A DNA stretch of 9,750 nucleotides from a virus (IMGVR_UViG_2579778631_000016), one strand, 5' to 3'. Shown: positions 1 to 9,750, numbered from the stretch's first letter. The notes: generated by a model from the letters alone, not told the origin. A program made the numbers and translations.

Positions 1-282
1 TTACCGCCGCAACCGCTCCGGCTTCTTCCAGTGGTACGTTATTTTTTCTTTCTCCCGATACAGTTCAACGCGGCGATTGTAGGCCAGCATTTCCAGAACG
101 CGGATCCGTATGTCGCGCATATCAACATCATTAAGCTGGATACCATCACGGCGCATCACCTCAGCAACAATACGCACATAATTTTCAGCGGTCACGCTGT
201 CCGGCTGTGTGGCCTGTTCGTCATGCTGCTGGCTGATTCCGGTAACGCGGCGGATTAATCCCAGTAGTTCGGCTTCTGTCAT
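1..282 (-). CDS. hypothetical protein, 93 aa (MTEAELLGLIRRVTG...)
   Basis: The 1..480(-) ORF was trimmed to the internal ATG at 280-282, which is preceded by a GGGGG Shine-Dalgarno; stop TAA at 1-3. The longer N-terminal extension runs through the cos-like sequence and does not look protein-like. No family recognised. Confidence 0.45.
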   Translation of the reverse strand: MTEAELLGLIRRVTGISQQHDEQATQPDSVTAENYVRIVAEVMRRDGIQLNDVDMRDIRIRVLEMLAYNRRVELYREKEKITYHWKKPERLRR

Positions 283-312
283 TGTGCCCCCATCGCTCTG
301 ATAGTCTGGTGT

Positions 313-392
313 CGTCGGGTCCTTCCTGGAATTATGGCCCGTTACGGGGCGGCGACCTCGCGCGTTTTCACTATTTATGAAAATTTTTCGGG
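313..392 (+). other. lambda-type cohesive-end site, copy A (cosQ-like + cosN)
   Basis: The + strand reads cgtcgggtccttcctggaattatggcccgttacg / GGGCGGCGACCT / cgcgcgttttcactatttatgaaaatttttcgg. The 12-mer at 347-358 and its flanks match the lambda genome left end and concatemer junction as I recall them (...cgacgggtcctttccggtgatccgacaggttacg|GGGCGGCGACCTCGCGGGTTTTCGCTATTTATGAAAATTTTCCGG) at nearly every position. Confidence 0.7.
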
Positions 393-395
393 ATC

Positions 396-494
396 CATGT
401 CCGGTTTCTCTGCAAGTTAACCATATGAAAAATATAAAAACATGCTTTCCATGAACCGGACATGCGCAAAAAACAGACACTAAAACCGGACATC
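396..494 (+). repeat. three copies of GAAACCGGACAT(G/C), one inverted; candidate cosB-type small-terminase binding sites
   Basis: catgtccggtttc at 396-408 (inverted), tgaaccggacatg at 452-464, aaaccggacatc at 483-494. Spacing is about 60 and 30 bp, close to whole helical turns, and the array sits immediately downstream of cosN copy A where lambda has the R3/R2/R1 sites of cosB. Confidence 0.4.
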
Positions 495-561
495 GAACCA
501 GTTAACCGAAAGTGTGCACAAATCACATGCATTGCTGCGAGTGATTAACAAGTTATCGGCT

Positions 562-996
562 TTACTGTTCTGTATCGGCTGATTGCTCCATGCTGGCACG
601 GCGAACGCTTACGGCATGACGCCACCCAGCCAGAAAGCCAGCCATTTTATTTCGTGCCTTGCTCACATCTTCCGGTGAATAGCCGTAAATCTGCAAACCT
701 TCATCAAATCGATGTTCTGTTTCTTCACTGGAGTACTCGTCACGCTCAGATGAAAGCAGCCTGGCAAACATAATTTTTTCCAGCGCACTGGTTTCTACGT
801 GATATCTGATGGCCTCAAGACGGCTTTTACCTGAAGACCAAAGCAATGTATGCCCGATGTGATAACCGCCAGACTTTCCGCGATCCGCATTAAGATACGG
901 CATCCCCTGTTTGGTCCATGCGCGAATAGTGGTTCTGTTAACCTTGAAATGTTCAGCTATTTCCTGCTGACTTACAAAACAAGCTTTATCAATCAT
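562..996 (-). CDS. Nu1-like terminase small subunit / packaging-specificity protein, 144 aa
   Basis: N-terminus VSQQEIAEHFKVNRTTIRAWTKQGMPYL aligns with the lambda Nu1 winged-HTH region KKQLADIFGASIRTIQNWQEQGMPVL. ATG at 994-996 has an AAGGTAA Shine-Dalgarno and lies 89 nt downstream of cosN copy B on the same strand. No terminase large subunit gene follows. Confidence 0.75.
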   Translation of the reverse strand: MIDKACFVSQQEIAEHFKVNRTTIRAWTKQGMPYLNADRGKSGGYHIGHTLLWSSGKSRLEAIRYHVETSALEKIMFARLLSSERDEYSSEETEHRFDEGLQIYGYSPEDVSKARNKMAGFLAGWRHAVSVRRASMEQSADTEQ

Positions 997-1057
997 AATG
1001 TTACCTTAACTGCATGGTTAAATATTAATCAAGTGGTGGTGGTGTCACCTTCACGGA

Positions 1058-1133
1058 AAAACGTCATAAATAGCGAAAACCCGCGAGGTCGCCGCCCCGT
1101 AACGGGTCCATATGCCGGAAAGGACCCGTAAAA
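1058..1133 (-). other. lambda-type cohesive-end site, copy B (cosQ-like + cosN + one R3-like element)
   Basis: The minus strand reads tttacgggtcctttccggcatatggacccgttacg / GGGCGGCGACCT / cgcgggttttcgctatttatgacgtttttccgtgaagg; the cohesive-end 12-mer is at 1086-1097. This matches the recalled lambda cosQ/cosN almost exactly, and ACGTTTTTCCG resembles the lambda R-site core CGTTTCC. Confidence 0.7.
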
Positions 1134-1152
1134 AAAGCCGGATTTCTCCGGC
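1130..1152 (-). terminator. rho-independent terminator ending the capsid operon
   Basis: Hairpin gccgga-tttc-tccggc (1137-1152) is followed on the minus strand by a 7-nt U tract (A tract 1130-1136 on +), 7 nt after the stop of the 137-aa gene. Confidence 0.6.
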
Positions 1153-1158
1153 CTTGTC

Positions 1159-1572
1159 TCAGATGGTTTTCAGTATGCGCTCGATGTCGCCATCATCGCC
1201 CGGGTTTCTGCCGTCGTATGCCATGCCAGCTGAAACGGCTTGCGGGCTGTGCATGTCCATAAAGTTTTCAAAGGCTGCGGTAAGCTCCGGCGCAACCTTC
1301 TGGCGTTCCTGCTCTATGGTCATGCTAAGGATGCTTTTAGCCGTACCAACATCGATACAAGGCACGTTTGCCATTGCACGTAACAGCGGCTGATAGTCGT
1401 TATGCTCATGAAGCGCCATAATCGCATCAGCGCGCGGCTTGTCCTGCTCTTCCAGTTTGTTGAGTTGATATACGGCCTCGTAGGTTGATAAACCTCTGTC
1501 AGCCATTGCCCGCGCTTCGGCTTTAAATTTACTCGCCAGCGGTAGCGTCATGATGCTTTCATTCGTTGCCAT
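1159..1572 (-). CDS. hypothetical head-module protein, 137 aa
   Basis: ATG at 1570-1572 with an AGGGGGAA Shine-Dalgarno, 12 nt after the stop of the gpD-like gene and followed by a terminator. Function unknown; its position suggests an accessory head, scaffold or size-determination protein. Confidence 0.6.
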   Translation of the reverse strand: MATNESIMTLPLASKFKAEARAMADRGLSTYEAVYQLNKLEEQDKPRADAIMALHEHNDYQPLLRAMANVPCIDVGTAKSILSMTIEQERQKVAPELTAAFENFMDMHSPQAVSAGMAYDGRNPGDDGDIERILKTI

Positions 1573-1584
1573 CGTTCCCCCTGC

Positions 1585-1920
1585 TTATCGGGCCAGCGGC
1601 TGAACGGATACGCCAGAACCCGCAAAGGCGGCGCATTTTTTCGCATCGGTGTCGACGCTCTCGGGCCAGTTCACGGCGGCGATATTAAAGATCCCCGTCT
1701 TGTAGCACTGTGCTGATTTCTGCTTTGACGTGTCCACGGGGTACGAAGTCAGATAAACAGCCTTTCCGGACGCCTGACCATCCCACGGCTTAAACTCGCC
1801 ATTGTCCGCCAGCATCAGCGGGGTAAATTCCTGAATGACGCCAGCATCAGCGGCAAAATGTACCAGCGTCGTGGATACCTGCTGACTGCCTGCAAATAAC
1901 TCAATGTATGGAGTGTTCAT
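1585..1920 (-). CDS. head decoration protein, lambda gpD-like, 111 aa
   Basis: TPLMLADNGEFKPWDG and YKTGIFNIAAVNWPES...KKCAAFAGSGVSV match lambda gpD (TPLMLDTSSRKLVAWDG; YKSGTFRYEDVLWPEA...KKRTAFAGTAISIV). GGGGGA Shine-Dalgarno; directly follows the capsid gene. Confidence 0.8.
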   Translation of the reverse strand: MNTPYIELFAGSQQVSTTLVHFAADAGVIQEFTPLMLADNGEFKPWDGQASGKAVYLTSYPVDTSKQKSAQCYKTGIFNIAAVNWPESVDTDAKKCAAFAGSGVSVQPLAR

Positions 1921-1931
1921 AGAATCCCCCG

Positions 1932-2987
1932 TTAACCAATTTTGACGGTAACAAATTTGCGAATGTCTGCCGGCACCGGCTGCGGTGCGCTGTGCGTCTG
2001 CACGTACTCAATCGCCGGATCGCCGTCCTCAATCCAGTTTTTCGGGTAGTACATGTTTTGCGTTGCGCCCGTTCTTACCGCTTCCTGATCCATAATCGCA
2101 CCATAAGCAACCAGCCCTTTATTGTTGGTGTTGCCCAAGACCAGCAAATCAGGCTCAAGGAAATGTTTTTCGGTGCCGTCGCTGTCGGCGTATTTGCCGG
2201 AATAGACGATAAGGGCAATATCGCCCAGATAGCCTTTAAAGCTCACCACTTCGCCCAGGTTTTTACAGGCCAGTTCTGCGGCGGATTCTGAACCACGGGA
2301 AAGATCGTACAGTTCGCGGAATTTTTTAAAGCTGCGTAACGTGCGCCATACCTCAGCGCCCATAATCATGACGTTTGCGGGGCAATTGCCCTGATCCGCA
2401 TAAAGCTCGATATCATAGATTGGATCGTGGGTTTCTTTGTCCTGCTCGGACCATTTACGGCCTTTGGCCTGCTCTATGATGTTGTTTTCCGGCATCTTCC
2501 AGTCGATTTCATAGCGTTCTATGCCTTCGCCCTCAATGATGTTTTTTCCGGTCGTTACCGCATTTACCGCCAGCCATTCAACACGCGCTTTAATAGCGTT
2601 TACCTGGCGGCGCATGTTGCCAGTAATCAGGCGCATACGGCGATAGGTTGGGTCGTTAAGCTGTGCCGGATCTTCTCCAGCCATGCGCATGATGGTTTTT
2701 GTTGGATCGATTTCGTGCTTTGGCTTCATGTAGCCAGGTTTAATCGTGCTGGTTTCGTACCCTTTATCGCGCTGTACCTGGCTACCAACCATAGGCGAGC
2801 AAAACGCTGACATAGTGACTTCTTCGGTGTCCAGGTTATCCAGCATGATGTTTTGGGTGTTGAATGTCGCTACTTTCTGGAAAAACAGCGTGGTAAACAG
2901 CGGACTAAATTTAAATTCCGCAATATCCCCGCGATTCAGGTACGCAAAAAGCTGGTGAGTGTTAAGTGCCGTTGCTTTGCCTGCCAT
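1932..2987 (-). CDS. major capsid protein, lambda gpE family, 351 aa
   Basis: Several blocks match lambda gpE: EFKFSPLFTTLFF / KFKFDPLFLRLFF; PGYMKPKHEIDP / PGYVKPKHEVNP; EDPAQLNDPTYRRMRLITGNMR / EDPQNLADPAYRRRRIIMQNMR; GDIALIVYSGKY / GDVAIVVYSGQY; YPKNWIEDGDPA / YPKNWVTTGDPA. Start overlaps the upstream stop (TAATG). Confidence 0.9.
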   Translation of the reverse strand: MAGKATALNTHQLFAYLNRGDIAEFKFSPLFTTLFFQKVATFNTQNIMLDNLDTEEVTMSAFCSPMVGSQVQRDKGYETSTIKPGYMKPKHEIDPTKTIMRMAGEDPAQLNDPTYRRMRLITGNMRRQVNAIKARVEWLAVNAVTTGKNIIEGEGIERYEIDWKMPENNIIEQAKGRKWSEQDKETHDPIYDIELYADQGNCPANVMIMGAEVWRTLRSFKKFRELYDLSRGSESAAELACKNLGEVVSFKGYLGDIALIVYSGKYADSDGTEKHFLEPDLLVLGNTNNKGLVAYGAIMDQEAVRTGATQNMYYPKNWIEDGDPAIEYVQTHSAPQPVPADIRKFVTVKIG

Positions 2988-3193
2988 TATTCACCCCCAT
3001 AATTTTTATGCATCCCAAGCGCCGCAAGTAAATAAGAGCGTACAAGTGAACCTATCGACGGCTCCGGCGTCATCAGCGGATCCAGTCCAGCCGCCACGCC
3101 AGCCTCATAGTTTTTTTTGTGGCGCTGCTTGAGCACCTCCACGATTTCGGGGCTTATGTACACCGAAACACCGCCTTTTTTCTCTTCAGCCAT
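2987..3193 (-). CDS. hypothetical protein, 68 aa, first gene of capsid operon
   Basis: ATG at 3191-3193 with a GAGGAA Shine-Dalgarno; its stop overlaps the capsid ATG, indicating translational coupling. No family recognised. Confidence 0.55.
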   Translation of the reverse strand: MAEEKKGGVSVYISPEIVEVLKQRHKKNYEAGVAAGLDPLMTPEPSIGSLVRSYLLAALGMHKNYGGE

Positions 3194-3249
3194 AGTAAGA
3201 AATTCCTCTTCGACTTAAAAAATCATAACTGGATGTTCATCCAGCTCTG

Positions 3250-3277
3250 ATTATAATCATGATTGCATTTTGTGCAA
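3250..3277 (-). promoter_or_regulatory. sigma70-like promoter for the capsid operon (TTGCAC, 16 bp spacer, TATAAT)
   Basis: On the minus strand: -35 TTGCAC (3272-3277), 16-nt spacer, -10 TATAAT (3250-3255), about 55 nt upstream of the ATG at 3193. The -10 lies inside the perfect palindrome GATTATAATC and is flanked by TTGCA/TGCAA dyads. Confidence 0.45.
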
Positions 3278-3357
3278 TGATATTGAGTTGTGTTGCAAAT
3301 TGTGAAATGATTATCCCGATCATGTGTGTCAGTGCACCAAAAAGCCTCATATGCAAA

Positions 3358-3395
3358 AGCCCGATAAGCCACCTCTGACCTTATCGGGCTTTTTT
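3358..3395 (+). terminator. rho-independent terminator on the + strand
   Basis: agcccgataag-(11 nt loop)-cttatcgggct followed by TTTTT (3391-3395). No annotated + strand gene ends here, so it would terminate a short + strand transcript starting near the capsid promoter. Confidence 0.45.
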
Positions 3396-4573: not shown

Positions 4574-6322
4574 TTATAAAAACGCGTCGCAATCGTCTGT
4601 TGTTATTGCGTTAGTCTGCGTTACTCCCTTAACTTTCCGCGTAATATATTCATGTCCGTAAACTTTCGCGGCTGGCTTCATAGCCTTGCCAAAGTCATTT
4701 ACGTTTAGCGGTTTGCTCCTGCCTGCGTATGCCATAAACGCCAGATAGACGCGGTAAAGGCTGTTCCTGGTCGTGTACTTCACTGAATCGCCACCGCCCC
4801 CCATCATCAGGCCGCGCGCTTCCTCCAGAAAATTCAGGAACTGGCAAAACTCAATAACCGGATCCGTTTGCTGCTTTATCGCCAGTGCTTCATCACCGTC
4901 ACGCTGTTCAATGAGTAAAGCCCGTGCCTTTTCAGGGGCGGAAAAGTTCGCCAGTAATCGGCGGATAATCACAGGGATTTCAGCCGCAATCTTTTCCGGT
5001 AGCTCCCTGTCTTTGTCGGCCTCACTGACGATATTGTCGAAACGGAAAATCACGCGACGACGTGCCACACCTCCGGCCCGTTCGGTGAATATCATCGGGT
5101 TGTTGTTGGTCGCCAGCACCACCGCCCTGATTACCGCCGTGAAACGCTTTTCATATTTCGGGTTAACTTCCACGGGGTCGCCGCCTGTGATTTTCTTGAT
5201 GCCCGTTCCTTCGCCTGTATATTTCGGCTGGTCAGCCAGGACGATAAGACGACTCCCGACAACCTGCGCACGTCCACCAGCATCATCAAGCGATGTCATT
5301 TCAGCGCTTACCGTGTTCTGTTTCCCTGCCAGAAGGCTGGCTATGTGTGTGAATGTACTTTTACCGCTCCCGCCGTCTCCGGTGGCCTCAATAAACATCT
5401 GCCAGTCGTACCGGTTCGCCATAATCATGTACAGCGCGGCACATATACGCATCATCTTGCTCGGGTCTTTTCCGGCTGCGTGCTCAAGCCATTTATGAAA
5501 GTTTGGCGCGTTATCGCGGATGTTCTCCCCGGGTGCTGGTGGCGTGTACTCAATGCCGTTGTGCGTGGTGATCCAGTTCTCCGGCGTGTGCGGGGAAAAT
5601 TCCCCCGTTTTCAGGTCAAGCGCACCATTGGCGAACGGCAGCAAATCGCCGGACGGCTCGCCCATTGGTTCGGCAATAACTTTTAACGCTTCCACGGCGT
5701 TATTGATTACGCGCTTGCTGAAAGTGGCCCTGTGCTCTGAATAGATCGCCACCATTTCGCGGCTCAGCTCCATTGTGCTGACCGGACACCATACCCCGCC
5801 GCGCCATACGTGAACGATTTCACTTTCAGGATGCACACAAACGCCATCAAAGCGCTCGGCAAGCAGCTGCGCGCGCTCACTGTCTGCCATTTGTGCCAGT
5901 TGCGTATTTTTCTGCTCCGGCATGGTAAGCCCTGCGGCAATATTTTCACGCTCAGCATTCAGATAGCGCCGCCAGTTTTCACACTTCTGGGCGTGCATTC
6001 CTTCGGGGTAAAAATTTGCGTCCTGAATATCTGCCGCCGCCAGCTTCTGACCAATCTTTTTGGTCTCCACCAAATCCAGTTCTCCGGCCTGGTACAGCCT
6101 TACGCGTTTTTTTCCATCAGGAACAATTTGCAGTGCATCAAGTTCGGCAAGCTGATTTGGCCCAAGCCACACAGGAGGCACATTATCGCCGGATGCGGGG
6201 CCGTCCTGCTCCTGCCACTGTTTTGCATGTGCCCACGCATCACTACCCGCGAAAATAATCACCTCTGTGTCTTTGTGTTTTATTCCGCGTGGCTGTTTTT
6301 TTACGTTCGGTGCCAGTTTCAT
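4574..6322 (-). CDS. P4-family primase / SF3 helicase replication initiator, 582 aa
   Basis: Walker A motif GDGGSGKST, a downstream LIVLADQP Walker B-like segment and a C-terminal region typical of phage/plasmid primase P4-family (D5_N-like) proteins. Start overlaps the stop of the upstream small ORF (ATGA). Confidence 0.9.
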   Translation of the reverse strand: MKLAPNVKKQPRGIKHKDTEVIIFAGSDAWAHAKQWQEQDGPASGDNVPPVWLGPNQLAELDALQIVPDGKKRVRLYQAGELDLVETKKIGQKLAAADIQDANFYPEGMHAQKCENWRRYLNAERENIAAGLTMPEQKNTQLAQMADSERAQLLAERFDGVCVHPESEIVHVWRGGVWCPVSTMELSREMVAIYSEHRATFSKRVINNAVEALKVIAEPMGEPSGDLLPFANGALDLKTGEFSPHTPENWITTHNGIEYTPPAPGENIRDNAPNFHKWLEHAAGKDPSKMMRICAALYMIMANRYDWQMFIEATGDGGSGKSTFTHIASLLAGKQNTVSAEMTSLDDAGGRAQVVGSRLIVLADQPKYTGEGTGIKKITGGDPVEVNPKYEKRFTAVIRAVVLATNNNPMIFTERAGGVARRRVIFRFDNIVSEADKDRELPEKIAAEIPVIIRRLLANFSAPEKARALLIEQRDGDEALAIKQQTDPVIEFCQFLNFLEEARGLMMGGGGDSVKYTTRNSLYRVYLAFMAYAGRSKPLNVNDFGKAMKPAAKVYGHEYITRKVKGVTQTNAITTDDCDAFL

Positions 6323-6623: not shown

Positions 6624-6851
6624 TTATTCTCCGGTATGGGGCGAGTTATTATTCTCGTGAATTGCCATCACTGTATTTAATTCATTAATAACAGGCGTTA
6701 ATAGCGTACGCACGGCAGAAAACATCATTGAATCAGATTCATCGCCACTTTCCGGCACATCAATTAACTTAAGTAGTAATGCGTCCATTTCCTTTGCGCG
6801 GATTAATGCGTTTTCAGAATGAACAAGAACATCAAAGGGTATTTTATGCAT
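6624..6851 (-). CDS. hypothetical protein, 75 aa
   Basis: ATG at 6849-6851 overlaps the stop of the upstream 67-aa ORF (ATGCATAA); acidic, no family recognised. Confidence 0.55.
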   Translation of the reverse strand: MHKIPFDVLVHSENALIRAKEMDALLLKLIDVPESGDESDSMMFSAVRTLLTPVINELNTVMAIHENNNSPHTGE

Positions 6852-7047
6852 GACTCACCCCCTGGCGAATACGGGCAGCGAATACCATCACGCAGCCATC
6901 AGGAGATTGCTGACGCGCTTCCTGTTCGCTGGTGGCCTCAATGGTAATCACGCGCGGTTGTGCCGTGCTCAGGGCGATAAAACGCCAGATGTATTTATTC
7001 AGGTTGTGCGAGTCCCGCCCTTTCGGGTGTGTGGTATGATTTAACAT
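6844..7047 (-). CDS. hypothetical protein, 67 aa, first gene of leftward replication operon
   Basis: Internal ATG at 7045-7047 of the long 6844..7791(-) ORF, preceded by GAGGTAG at good spacing. The remainder of the 315-aa ORF is judged spurious. Confidence 0.5.
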   Translation of the reverse strand: MLNHTTHPKGRDSHNLNKYIWRFIALSTAQPRVITIEATSEQEARQQSPDGCVMVFAARIRQGVSHA

Positions 7048-7141
7048 AGCTACCTCGATACTCTTTCTATCGTTGGTGGTTAGAAGCCCGTTGGTGTTGG
7101 TAGCACCTGCGGGCTTTGTCTTTTCATCGATTACCTCAACA

Positions 7142-7225
7142 AAGGTGTCAGCCACTATACTAGTAACAGGTGTCAGCCACGTCAATAGTGTTTTTCCATT
7201 TTCTTGTGTGTATACTGTCAGCCAC
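7142..7225 (+). promoter_or_regulatory. three direct repeats of TGTCAGCCAC in the divergent promoter region (putative operator)
   Basis: aaaggtgtcagccac (7142-7155), acaggtgtcagccac (7166-7180) and tactgtcagccac (7213-7225). TATACT hexamers at 7156-7161 and 7211-7216 abut the repeats. Located just upstream of the RHH gene start at 7247. Confidence 0.5.
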
Positions 7226-7246
7226 CTAATAACAAGGAAATCAGAT

Positions 7247-7426
7247 ATGGCAACGAAAGCAGTTAATGGAAAATCCAAAAAACTTGAGGCACGAGTCCCC
7301 CATGCAATAGCTGACGCTGTAGAAAATTTAAAGGAAGAAGGCGAAAGCACTGGGCAATTTATCGTTTCGGCACTTGAAGGCGAGATCAAACGCCGCCAGC
7401 GCCGCAAGGCCAAAGAACCAGAGTAA
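7247..7426 (+). CDS. ribbon-helix-helix (Arc/CopG-like) DNA-binding protein, 59 aa
   Basis: ATG at 7247 with an AAGGAAA Shine-Dalgarno. KKLEARVPHAIADAVENLKEEGESTGQFIVSALEGEI fits a beta-strand / helix / loop / helix RHH pattern, and the basic tail is RRQRRKAK. The long N-terminal extension in the ORF track was rejected. Confidence 0.65.
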   Translation: MATKAVNGKSKKLEARVPHAIADAVENLKEEGESTGQFIVSALEGEIKRRQRRKAKEPE

Positions 7427-7483
7427 TCACCATCAGCGCCGTGGTGTAAGGTATTACGGCGCATTGCTATGCAGGACAACACA

Positions 7484-7657
7484 ATGACCGATAAAGAATT
7501 GACCAAAACATTATCACCGGCACGGAAAAGACGGCGCAGAAAGATAGAGCATGAATCAGAAAGATTCGCGCCATGTGCTTTTGCCCTTGAGCAATTCCTT
7601 AAAGAGTACAGGGAAAAGCGCTCATTGCAGGTATGGCAACGAACTGAACCAGACTGA
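7484..7657 (+). CDS. hypothetical small basic protein, about 57 aa
   Basis: Second ATG (7484) has an AGGA Shine-Dalgarno whereas the first (7469) does not. Contains ARKRRRRK. Followed by a terminator. Start is uncertain. Confidence 0.4.
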   Translation: MTDKELTKTLSPARKRRRRKIEHESERFAPCAFALEQFLKEYREKRSLQVWQRTEPD

Positions 7658-7752
7658 TTGCATTGCCCACCAGCCTGATAGCGGCTATCATCCCCGTGCT
7701 TATGTTTGGGATCATATACACATAAGGCGCAGCGGGTTAATTGTTCAGAAAG

Positions 7753-7779
7753 GCGGCTCCATATCGGGGCCGCTTTTTT
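7753..7779 (+). terminator. rho-independent terminator
   Basis: gcggctcc-atatc-ggggccgc followed by TTTTTT (7774-7779); lies between the convergent RHH operon and alpA. Confidence 0.55.
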
Positions 7780-7805
7780 CGTGTTTGTCATATCTGTGAT
7801 ACCCG

Positions 7806-8508: not shown

Positions 8509-9750
8509 CTACACGGCTCGGATACCCCTTTTACCACTGGCGAGGGTTACGCCCGTCGCCGCAGCCTCGACAAATTCGCCCCACCAGCGCATCAGCACGA
8601 TGCGTTTTTCTATGTAGTTGCTCCGGTTGTATGCCCGTCTAACTTCGTTGGTGTCGACGTGGGCAAGTGCCGCCTCTATTACGTCCGGCTCGAATCCTTC
8701 CTCGTTCGCTGCTGTGCTGAATATGGCGCGTAATCCATGAGACACCAGCACGCCAGCGAATCCCATACGCCGCAATGCTGCGTTAGCTGTCTGGCTGTTC
8801 ATCGGCTGCTGTGGGTCTTTCAGACTTGGGAAAACGTAATTGCGGTGGTGGCTGATTGGTTTCATGGCCTCCAGCACCGCCATAGCCTGACCGGAAAGCG
8901 GGATAACGTGATCCCTGCGCATCTTCATGCGTCCGGCAGGTATCGTCCATTGCTTCGCGTCCAGGTTGATTTCATCCCACCGCGTTGATGACGCTTCGGC
9001 GGGACGGGTTACGGTCAGTAACTGCCATTCAATCAGTAATCTGGTCTGCCGTTCTGTTGCCGATACTGATAAAGCCTGCATAAGCTCCGGCAGCTGTTCG
9101 GGGCGGATTGTTGGCATATGTTTTTTTACAGGTGAGGGAAACGCCTTACGCACATTCATAGCCGGATTGGCATCAATCAGCCCACTGTTGGCGGCGTAAT
9201 CCATTACCTCATTAACGCGCTGTAAAACCCGCTTGAGTGTTTCCAGGTTGCCGCGCTCCTTGATGGGGGTAAGCACTTCAACGAACCTTCGGGCGGTGAG
9301 GGTATCTATTGGCGTGTTGCCGATGAACGGGAATACATATTTATCCAGCGAACGCCAGATGTCTTTAATCGTGTTGGGGGCCAGATTCTGGCTGATTTTC
9401 ACCTGGTACCATGCCGCCGCCACATTTTCGAACGTGTTCCCTTGTCTTCGGGCCTCTGTCTCTCTTTTTTGCCTCTCGTGGTCCTGCGGGTCAGTTCCGG
9501 CACTGATTAACGTCCTGTACTCGCTACGGCGTTTTCTGGCATCAGCCAGGGAAACATCTTCAAGCGATCCAAAACTCAGCAATATTCTTTTTTTGTCCGA
9601 TGGTCGGTAGTAGGAAAATCTCCAGAGTTTTGATCCAGACGGTTTGACCAGGAGAAAAAGCCCTCCGCCGTCCTGCAGGGTGTACTCCTTTTGCGCTGGT
9701 CTGGCTGCTTTGATCTGCACTGTGGTTAATGGGTGTGTTTTTCTCGCCAT
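8509..9750 (-). CDS. int: tyrosine integrase, P4 / CP4-57 IntA type, 413 aa
   Basis: N-terminus MARKTHPLTTVQIKAARP...GGGLFLLVKPSGSKLWRFSYYRP is typical of P4-like integrases. The C-terminal catalytic region has HGLRAIFST and AYNRSNYIEKR, the tyrosine motif. ATG sits at the window edge (9748-9750). Confidence 0.95.
   Translation of the reverse strand: MARKTHPLTTVQIKAARPAQKEYTLQDGGGLFLLVKPSGSKLWRFSYYRPSDKKRILLSFGSLEDVSLADARKRRSEYRTLISAGTDPQDHERQKRETEARRQGNTFENVAAAWYQVKISQNLAPNTIKDIWRSLDKYVFPFIGNTPIDTLTARRFVEVLTPIKERGNLETLKRVLQRVNEVMDYAANSGLIDANPAMNVRKAFPSPVKKHMPTIRPEQLPELMQALSVSATERQTRLLIEWQLLTVTRPAEASSTRWDEINLDAKQWTIPAGRMKMRRDHVIPLSGQAMAVLEAMKPISHHRNYVFPSLKDPQQPMNSQTANAALRRMGFAGVLVSHGLRAIFSTAANEEGFEPDVIEAALAHVDTNEVRRAYNRSNYIEKRIVLMRWWGEFVEAAATGVTLASGKRGIRAV

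Follow-up and report, generated by a model that had tools for sequence, protein, structure and literature searches.

The two facing cos sites of an EcCICFT073-family PICI: a satellite-specific cos1 and a phage-type cos2 on either side of rppA

The packaging module of EcCICFT073 and its counterpart in the window

The closest described system is the island EcCICFT073 of E. coli CFT073, which has a pair of cos sites, named cos1 and cos2, together with RppA (redirecting phage packaging protein A). RppA and the helper TerS form a hybrid DNA-binding domain that recognizes the cosB of cos1 and not the phage cosB, and in this way RppA redirects packaging to the island and blocks that of the phage (PMC6739421). 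In cosmid assays both cos sites let lambda and phi80 transfer a plasmid, and cos1, which is read by the RppA-phage TerS complex, is essential (PMC6092414, PMC6739421); RppA raises the transfer only of constructs with the cos1 cosB (PMC6739421). Deletion of cos1 lowers island transfer, the residual transfer being lost when both cos sites are deleted, and deletion of cos2 raises it, significantly with both helpers and more strongly with lambda (PMC6092414). On comparison with lambda and phi80, the phage cosB was found in neither site, and the cosB of cos2 was compared there only with lambda, phi80 and phage 4 (PMC6092414, PMC6739421). The authors asked why some islands have two different cos sites and left the question open (Fillol-Salom et al. 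2018/2019; PMC6092414, PMC6739421). In their main texts, PMC6092414 and PMC6739421 never speak of "orientation," "inverted" or "inversion," and we found no later literature explaining the two sites or their orientation. Helper-dependent induction and transfer have been published for EcCICFT073 only (PMC6092414).

The window, by which we mean the whole 9,750-nt stretch of DNA that was analyzed (IMGVR_UViG_2579778631_000016), is a complete cos-type PICI (phage-inducible chromosomal island) of the Gram-negative kind, ~10 kb long, as judged from gene content, Pfam searches and relatives bounded by chromosomal genes. It has an integrase at one end, a primase-type replication gene and cos, and neither the ORF list nor Pfam revealed a large terminase, portal or tail gene in the window. 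Pfam searches assigned a tyrosine integrase (8509-9750, -), a D5-type primase (4574-6322, -), an SSB (-), a capsid E-like gene (1932-2987, -; E 1e-49) and a decoration D-like gene (1585-1920, -; E 6e-18). A capsid-forming PICI is not supported, as genes for a portal, a protease and a terminase are lacking and the capsid E-like and decoration D-like genes stand alone; these two genes have already been noted as c1499 and c1500, and only phage-sized packaged DNA was found for EcCICFT073 (PMC6092414). The 315-aa ORF at 6844-7791 (-) has no Pfam family and is the least conserved part of the window, and relatives have several small hypothetical genes there. An Rfam scan returned no family in the window. 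In E. coli AST198 and Nissle 1917, which have the closest full-length relatives, the island is inserted between tRNA-Pro/yejM and yejO. EcCICFT073, in contrast, sits between roxA/pepT and phoQ, and its backbone differs from that of the window island, with flanking genes 87-96% identical.

The part of the window that concerns us is much closer to EcCICFT073. Positions 283-1158 are 99.8% identical to E. coli CFT073, only one of the 813 bases of 316-1128 differs, and from the capsid-like gene through the last island gene the two share their gene order. In Fig. S1A of PMC6739421, the printed cos1 is our copy B (minus strand, running into the start of the gene) and the printed cos2 is our copy A (plus strand). 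The gene between them, at 562-996 (-), encodes a 144-aa protein that is 100% identical to CFT073 c1503, that is, RppA. Its N-terminus is the one printed in Fig. S1 of PMC6739421, it matches the RppC structure PDB 6hlk with an E value of 5e-31, and it contains R21, T22, L51 and F121, the residues mutated by the authors, among which L51 and F121 are contact residues (PMC6739421). The earlier note had taken this gene for an orphan Nu1-like one. The likeness to lambda Nu1 stands for the N-terminal winged-helix DNA-binding domain (30% over 64 aa, E 3e-6) and fails for the remainder; RppA also lacks the C-terminal TerL-binding domain of TerS, its last ~40 residues being absent in comparison with the Nissle island TerS and the PhiR12 TerS. 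An orphan or degenerate terminase gene is ruled out by the identity to c1503, the 6hlk match and Fig. S1. A promoter scan around rppA gave three weak sites against 1.3 expected, and a search for RppA relatives with one genome per species confirmed none. On the cos1 side, the module is flanked by a 137-aa hypothetical gene at the end of the capsid-like operon (1159-1572, -; 95.9% identical to CFT073), and on the cos2 side by the last island gene, a 93-aa hypothetical one for which Pfam has no family (1-282, -; 91.5% identical to CFT073); both are annotated in relatives.

Because the sequences are identical to those of EcCICFT073, the published mechanism can be carried over to the window, and 316-1128 is very probably the cos1-rppA-cos2 packaging module of an EcCICFT073-family PICI, expected to work as published. 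Once a lambdoid helper is induced, the island would replicate and RppA would bind the helper small terminase (lambda/phi80 Nu1 class); the resulting hybrid DNA-binding domain would no longer recognize the phage cosB and would recognize that of cos1. The helper large terminase would then nick the cosN of cos1 and package island DNA, with phage packaging blocked. From the geometry of the sites, packaging from cos1 would proceed toward lower window coordinates, through rppA, and packaging from cos2 would run in the opposite direction, so that packaging in either direction, one of three meanings that the earlier note had offered, would follow from the layout. The note had also regarded two inverted cos sites as unusual; they are no unrecognized oddity, since EcCICFT073 has been published with these very sequences under the names cos1 and cos2 (PMC6092414, PMC6739421), and the two facing sites with the intervening gene are real but already known from the 2018 and 2019 papers. 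What goes beyond those papers is that cos2 is of phage type, that the layout is common to relatives, and that the inter-cos segment is inverted in two lineages and is far more conserved than its flanks.

The two cos sites compared with lambda cos

A motif search of the window found the exact 12-mer GGGCGGCGACCT twice, as the cosN of cos2 at 347-358 (+) and as the cosN of cos1 at 1086-1097 (-), each identical to lambda cosN in 12/12 positions (NC_001416). The two cosN are 727 nt apart, and both copies, read from cosQ through cosN to cosB, face inward to the 144-codon ORF at 562-996 (-); the lambda cohesive end in both copies and their convergent arrangement at a distance of about 730 bp had thus been described correctly. 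Both sites are embedded in an inverted repeat, whose 78-nt arms (316-393 and 1051-1128) are 82% complementary and separated by 657 nt. When up to two mismatches to GGGCGGCGACCT were allowed, four matches were obtained against 0.77 expected, a number reached in 0 of 200 shuffles. The other two cosN-like 12-mers, with two mismatches each, lie in the primase gene (5175-5186, -) and in the integrase gene (9245-9256, -), where they lack a cosQ/cosB context and are probably due to chance.

The flanks were compared with the lambda concatemer junction (ends of NC_001416) by ungapped alignment in register on cosN. Over the 35 nt of the cosQ side, 22/35 positions in copy A and 27/35 in copy B agree with the lambda right end, and the core CGGGTCCTT stands at the lambda spacing and register in both copies; this defines the cosQ-side arms of cos2 (316-346, +), which also agrees with the published cos2 sequence, and of cos1 (1098-1128, -), both within the inverted repeat. 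At positions +13 to +50, the agreement is 31/38 and 29/38 for copies A and B, respectively. Over the lambda cosB span, +51 to +190, it falls to 32/140 and 42/140, which is chance level (23-30%), and the in-register alignment over this span shows none of the lambda R3, R2 and R1 boxes in either copy; the lack of a lambda-type cosB has likewise been stated in PMC6739421. The alignment to the lambda ends therefore matched cosN and the cosQ register in both copies, and the view that the flanks follow lambda almost base for base is right for about -31 to +45 around the nick sites and wrong for cosB. In sum, lambda cos and the window share cosN, the cosQ core in the same register and the cosN-proximal 40 nt, whereas the window has two inverted copies in which R3/R2/R1 are replaced by other boxes, three in cos2 and ACACCACCACCAC in cos1. 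Lambda has the Nu1/A terminase, whereas the window element has no terminase genes and carries RppA in place of Nu1.

The two cosB sides differ from each other as well. That of cos2 (359-493, +) contains three boxes identified by repeat search, CATGTCCGGTT at 396-406, AACCGGACATG at 454-464 and AACCGGACAT at 484-493; the boxes at 454-464 and 484-493 (AACCGGACAT(G)) are the complement of the CATGTCCGGTT box. The cosB side of cos1 (997-1085, -), assigned from the published cos1 sequence and the cosB-swap primers, is satellite-specific and carries the box GGTGACACCACCACCAC, and the functional cosB of cos1 reaches into rppA to about position 917 (PMC6739421). The GGTGACACCACCACCAC box, located at 1033-1049 on the plus strand and belonging to the minus-strand cosB of cos1, recurs in all the Rpp loci examined, including those with as little as 70% protein identity, and is a candidate recognition element for the Rpp-TerS complex. 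On the other side of cos1, a terminator-like hairpin at 1133-1153 (-) follows the upstream 137-aa gene (RNA fold of -19.1 kcal/mol, z -4.1), and its U-run abuts the cosQ of cos1. This hairpin was missed by a simple consensus terminator scan and was detected on folding.

Phage counterparts of cos2 and layout in related islands

Over 135 nt, cos2 matches on its cosB side (359-493) the cos region of phages PhiR12_1/2/4/5 with 97% identity; in these phages the region has Rz on one side and a Nu1-type gene on the other. Among 5426 complete E. coli genomes, 226 contain this cosB, and about 53 of these represent the island. The remaining matches end where the PhiR12 match does, and the two that were inspected are both lambdoid prophage cos sites, ~48 nt upstream of a 169-aa TerS and TerL. 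As to whether cos2-bearing islands co-occur with prophages of the matching class, a second match to the cos2-type cosB was counted in 4 of 14 sampled island-bearing genomes, which are not independent of one another. For the cosB of cos1, the phage collection held no matching phage at blastn sensitivity. By these comparisons, cos1 is specific to the satellite and cos2 faithfully reproduces an actual phage site. The distinction between a helper-type and a satellite-specific cos is the best supported of the three meanings offered earlier, since the cos1 cosB is read only by RppA-TerS according to the published work and the cos2 cosB is 97% identical to a phage cosB.

In lambda and phage 21, packaging specificity is defined by a matched pair of cosB and TerS DNA-binding domain. 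The C-terminal half of the 169-aa TerS shares 46% identity with Nu1, whereas no similarity to Nu1 is detectable in its N-terminal domain, a pattern that would be expected for a different cosB specificity class, as for lambda versus phage 21. The logic of the lambda and phage 21 classes is the same, with cosN shared and with cosB and the TerS N-terminal domain varying together; the difference is that in the window two specificity classes appear on one small replicon. With the PhiR12-type phages and the prophages encoding the 169-aa TerS, cos2 shares cosQ, cosN, the 135-nt three-box cosB and its position relative to cosN. In those phages, however, the site lies ~48 nt upstream of their own terS and terL, whereas cos2 of the island is followed by no such terS and faces the 3' end of rppA. 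A comparable case is 11capE, a helper-embedded PICI that shares a 258-bp, 90% identical cos segment with its helper, in which respect we liken it to cos2, although one shared cos is reported there as against two in the window (PMC10111431). SaPIbov4 is another satellite for which a pair of putative cos sites has been reported (cited in PMC6092414); it is Gram-positive and unrelated in sequence, and the likeness is one of description. As cos2 reproduces almost exactly the cos of another E. coli prophage class, and a common one, the open question of the two cos sites becomes experimentally simple.

The layout is widespread among relatives. Two convergent cosN flank the central gene in all five related chromosomal PICIs checked (AST198, Nissle, CFT073, WP4-S17-ESBL-08 and GmF052) and in 20 of the 25 IMG/VR loci encoding RppA relatives; a distant locus, L030, has a single cos. 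The cosB of the distal site is variable, being of PhiR12 type, of the GGTTGTTG-box type or of phage 21 type, and in the Nissle-type island the distal cos is of phage 21 type with its boxes. The GGTTGTTG-type distal cosB had no match in the phage collection. The cosB type with GGTTGTTG and CAACAACC (L016 2940-3158; L006 4065-4290; L002 7082-7214) is the proximal site before the 180-aa island TerS in Nissle and the distal site in many RppA islands without terS. In three RppB-like loci (L027, L028 and L029; 83-86% protein identity), a lambda-type cosN with at most one mismatch is absent from both copies, and the cosN position reads GGGGGTA...ACGCGC in five of six copies, a possible sign of helpers whose cohesive ends are different. 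Around 2370-2420 and 3130-3200 of these loci, two convergent sites, the cosQ core and the TATTTATGA motif are kept.

Exchange and inversion at the arms and the role of a second cos

By comparing the window with CFT073 (window 1-3395 versus L003 11719-15113), we found that the cassette is almost identical and that the flanks are 91.5%, 95.9%, 94.9% and 93.1% identical, from which it follows that the cassette was recently exchanged between islands with boundaries at the cos arms. The arms also exchange sequence with each other: the window and CFT073 have two different cosQ, whereas the cos2-type cosQ is found on both copies in AST198 (L001 6315-6346 and 7097-7128) and in an inverted variant (L005), and the shared cosQ of the two copies is due to gene conversion between the arms. 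The cassette is present in 53 genomes, and in 15 of them the match is confined to 316-1128. In both of the 15 that were inspected (WP4-S17-ESBL-08 and MSB1_7A), the inter-cosN segment, cosB2-rppA-cosB1, is flipped with respect to both the capsid-like operon and the last gene (window 316-1128; L005 4001-4813; L038 1501-2313). A synthetic junction query for an inverted TerS-type (Nissle-type) cassette retrieved two genomes, PM4-5 and LZHX12, in which terS is flipped (L033 3001-4400 and L039 2501-3900; compare L002 6283-7286); their islands occupy another attachment site, near mdtJ/tqsA. According to these alignments, the inversion has happened at least twice, in PICI lineages independent of each other. 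Both exchange between islands and flipping take place at the shared cosQ-cosN arms, which thus serve as recombination points, and homologous recombination between them is the simple explanation for the inversions. A second possible route is that terminase could cut both cosN and the 739-bp middle piece rejoin either way, because the same 5' overhang would be at both of its ends and the complement on both outer ends. A recombination or duplication scar, the remaining meaning proposed earlier, is therefore supported in part, by the gene conversion, the cassette exchange and the natural inversions at the arms.

For the role of cos2 itself, we give about even odds to a complete phage-type cos by way of which helpers of the class with the 169-aa TerS could package the island directly, with no need for Rpp. 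This class comprises the PhiR12-like phages and many E. coli prophages, and the island would carry one satellite-specific and one helper-cognate entry site. That cos2 is costly with lambda and has nevertheless been retained argues for a benefit, and service to the 169-aa TerS helpers would explain why a costly site has persisted and why its 135-nt cosB, which lies outside the repeat, is intact. Two observations fit less well. CFT073 carries no prophage bearing this cosB, which has a single place in that genome, and phage 4, the helper resident there, has a cos of phage 21 type, so that cos2 is not matched to a co-resident helper there. In addition, many RppA islands have a distal cos of a type without phage match, which misfits a simple helper-cognate rule. 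If Rpp-independent packaging via cos2 is true, the helper range of these islands, and of the virulence or resistance cargo on them, would be wider than the lambda/phi80 model suggests, and swapping the cassette could adapt engineered PICI delivery vehicles to chosen helpers. More tentatively, the whole segment may be a portable dual-specificity cassette, in which cos1 would be used through RppA and a TerS of the lambda/phi80 class, cos2 through a TerS of the other class (PhiR12-like phages and many STEC/O55:H7-type prophages), and the shared cosQ-cosN arms as points of swapping and flipping. One small satellite could then exploit two helper families.

It is rather unlikely, though a serious alternative, that cos2 has no role of its own and was left behind when the island once recombined with a lambdoid phage or with another island, being neutral or mildly harmful and kept intact by conversion from cos1 and by hitchhiking with rppA. 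Such an origin would agree with the increase of lambda-mediated transfer on cos2 deletion (PMC6092414), with the arms exchanging sequence, as the cos2-type cosQ on both copies of AST198 and the inverted variant indicates, with the movement of the cassette as a block, with the Rpp locus that has a single cos (L030) and with the mixture of distal cosB types. Gene conversion between the arms could keep even a useless copy looking intact around cosN. However, the 135-nt cosB of cos2 lies outside the repeat, where conversion from cos1 cannot maintain it, and yet it is 97% identical to a working phage cosB with all three boxes. The two-cos layout also persists across different cassettes and in lineages with different cosN, and cos2 works in cosmid assays, the residual transfer of the cos1-deleted island being lost in the double mutant (PMC6092414).

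That cos2 might act against the helper, as a decoy or interference site that draws the unmodified helper terminase or causes unproductive cuts and so harms phage packaging, we consider improbable. A good copy of a phage cos would suit such a purpose, and islands of the EcCICFT073 family do interfere with helper packaging, but the published interference is fully explained by RppA-TerS binding (PMC6739421), and a terminase drawn to cos2 would not be lost, as it would go on to package island DNA. Still less credit goes to a programmed invertible switch, in which the convergent cos pair would flip rppA or terS relative to the late operon or set the polarity of packaging. Both orientations occur in nature in two independent island lineages, with breakpoints inside the inverted arms. 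On the other hand, Hin/Gin/Fim-type invertons have a dedicated invertase beside the repeats, and the cos cassette has none: no recombinase is annotated near the cassette in five relatives, and the only one in the window is the island tyrosine integrase at 8509-9750. The orientation is moreover fixed within a lineage (15 genomes of one island type and two of another), which fits rare events, and the terminator already separates rppA from the upstream operon, so that orientation may matter little. Chance similarity or an assembly artifact, in favor of which there is only the small size of the repeat, is excluded by the exact 12-mers within a 78-nt repeat, by the recurrence of the layout in IMG/VR and in over 50 complete genomes that many laboratories produced, and by the published assays.
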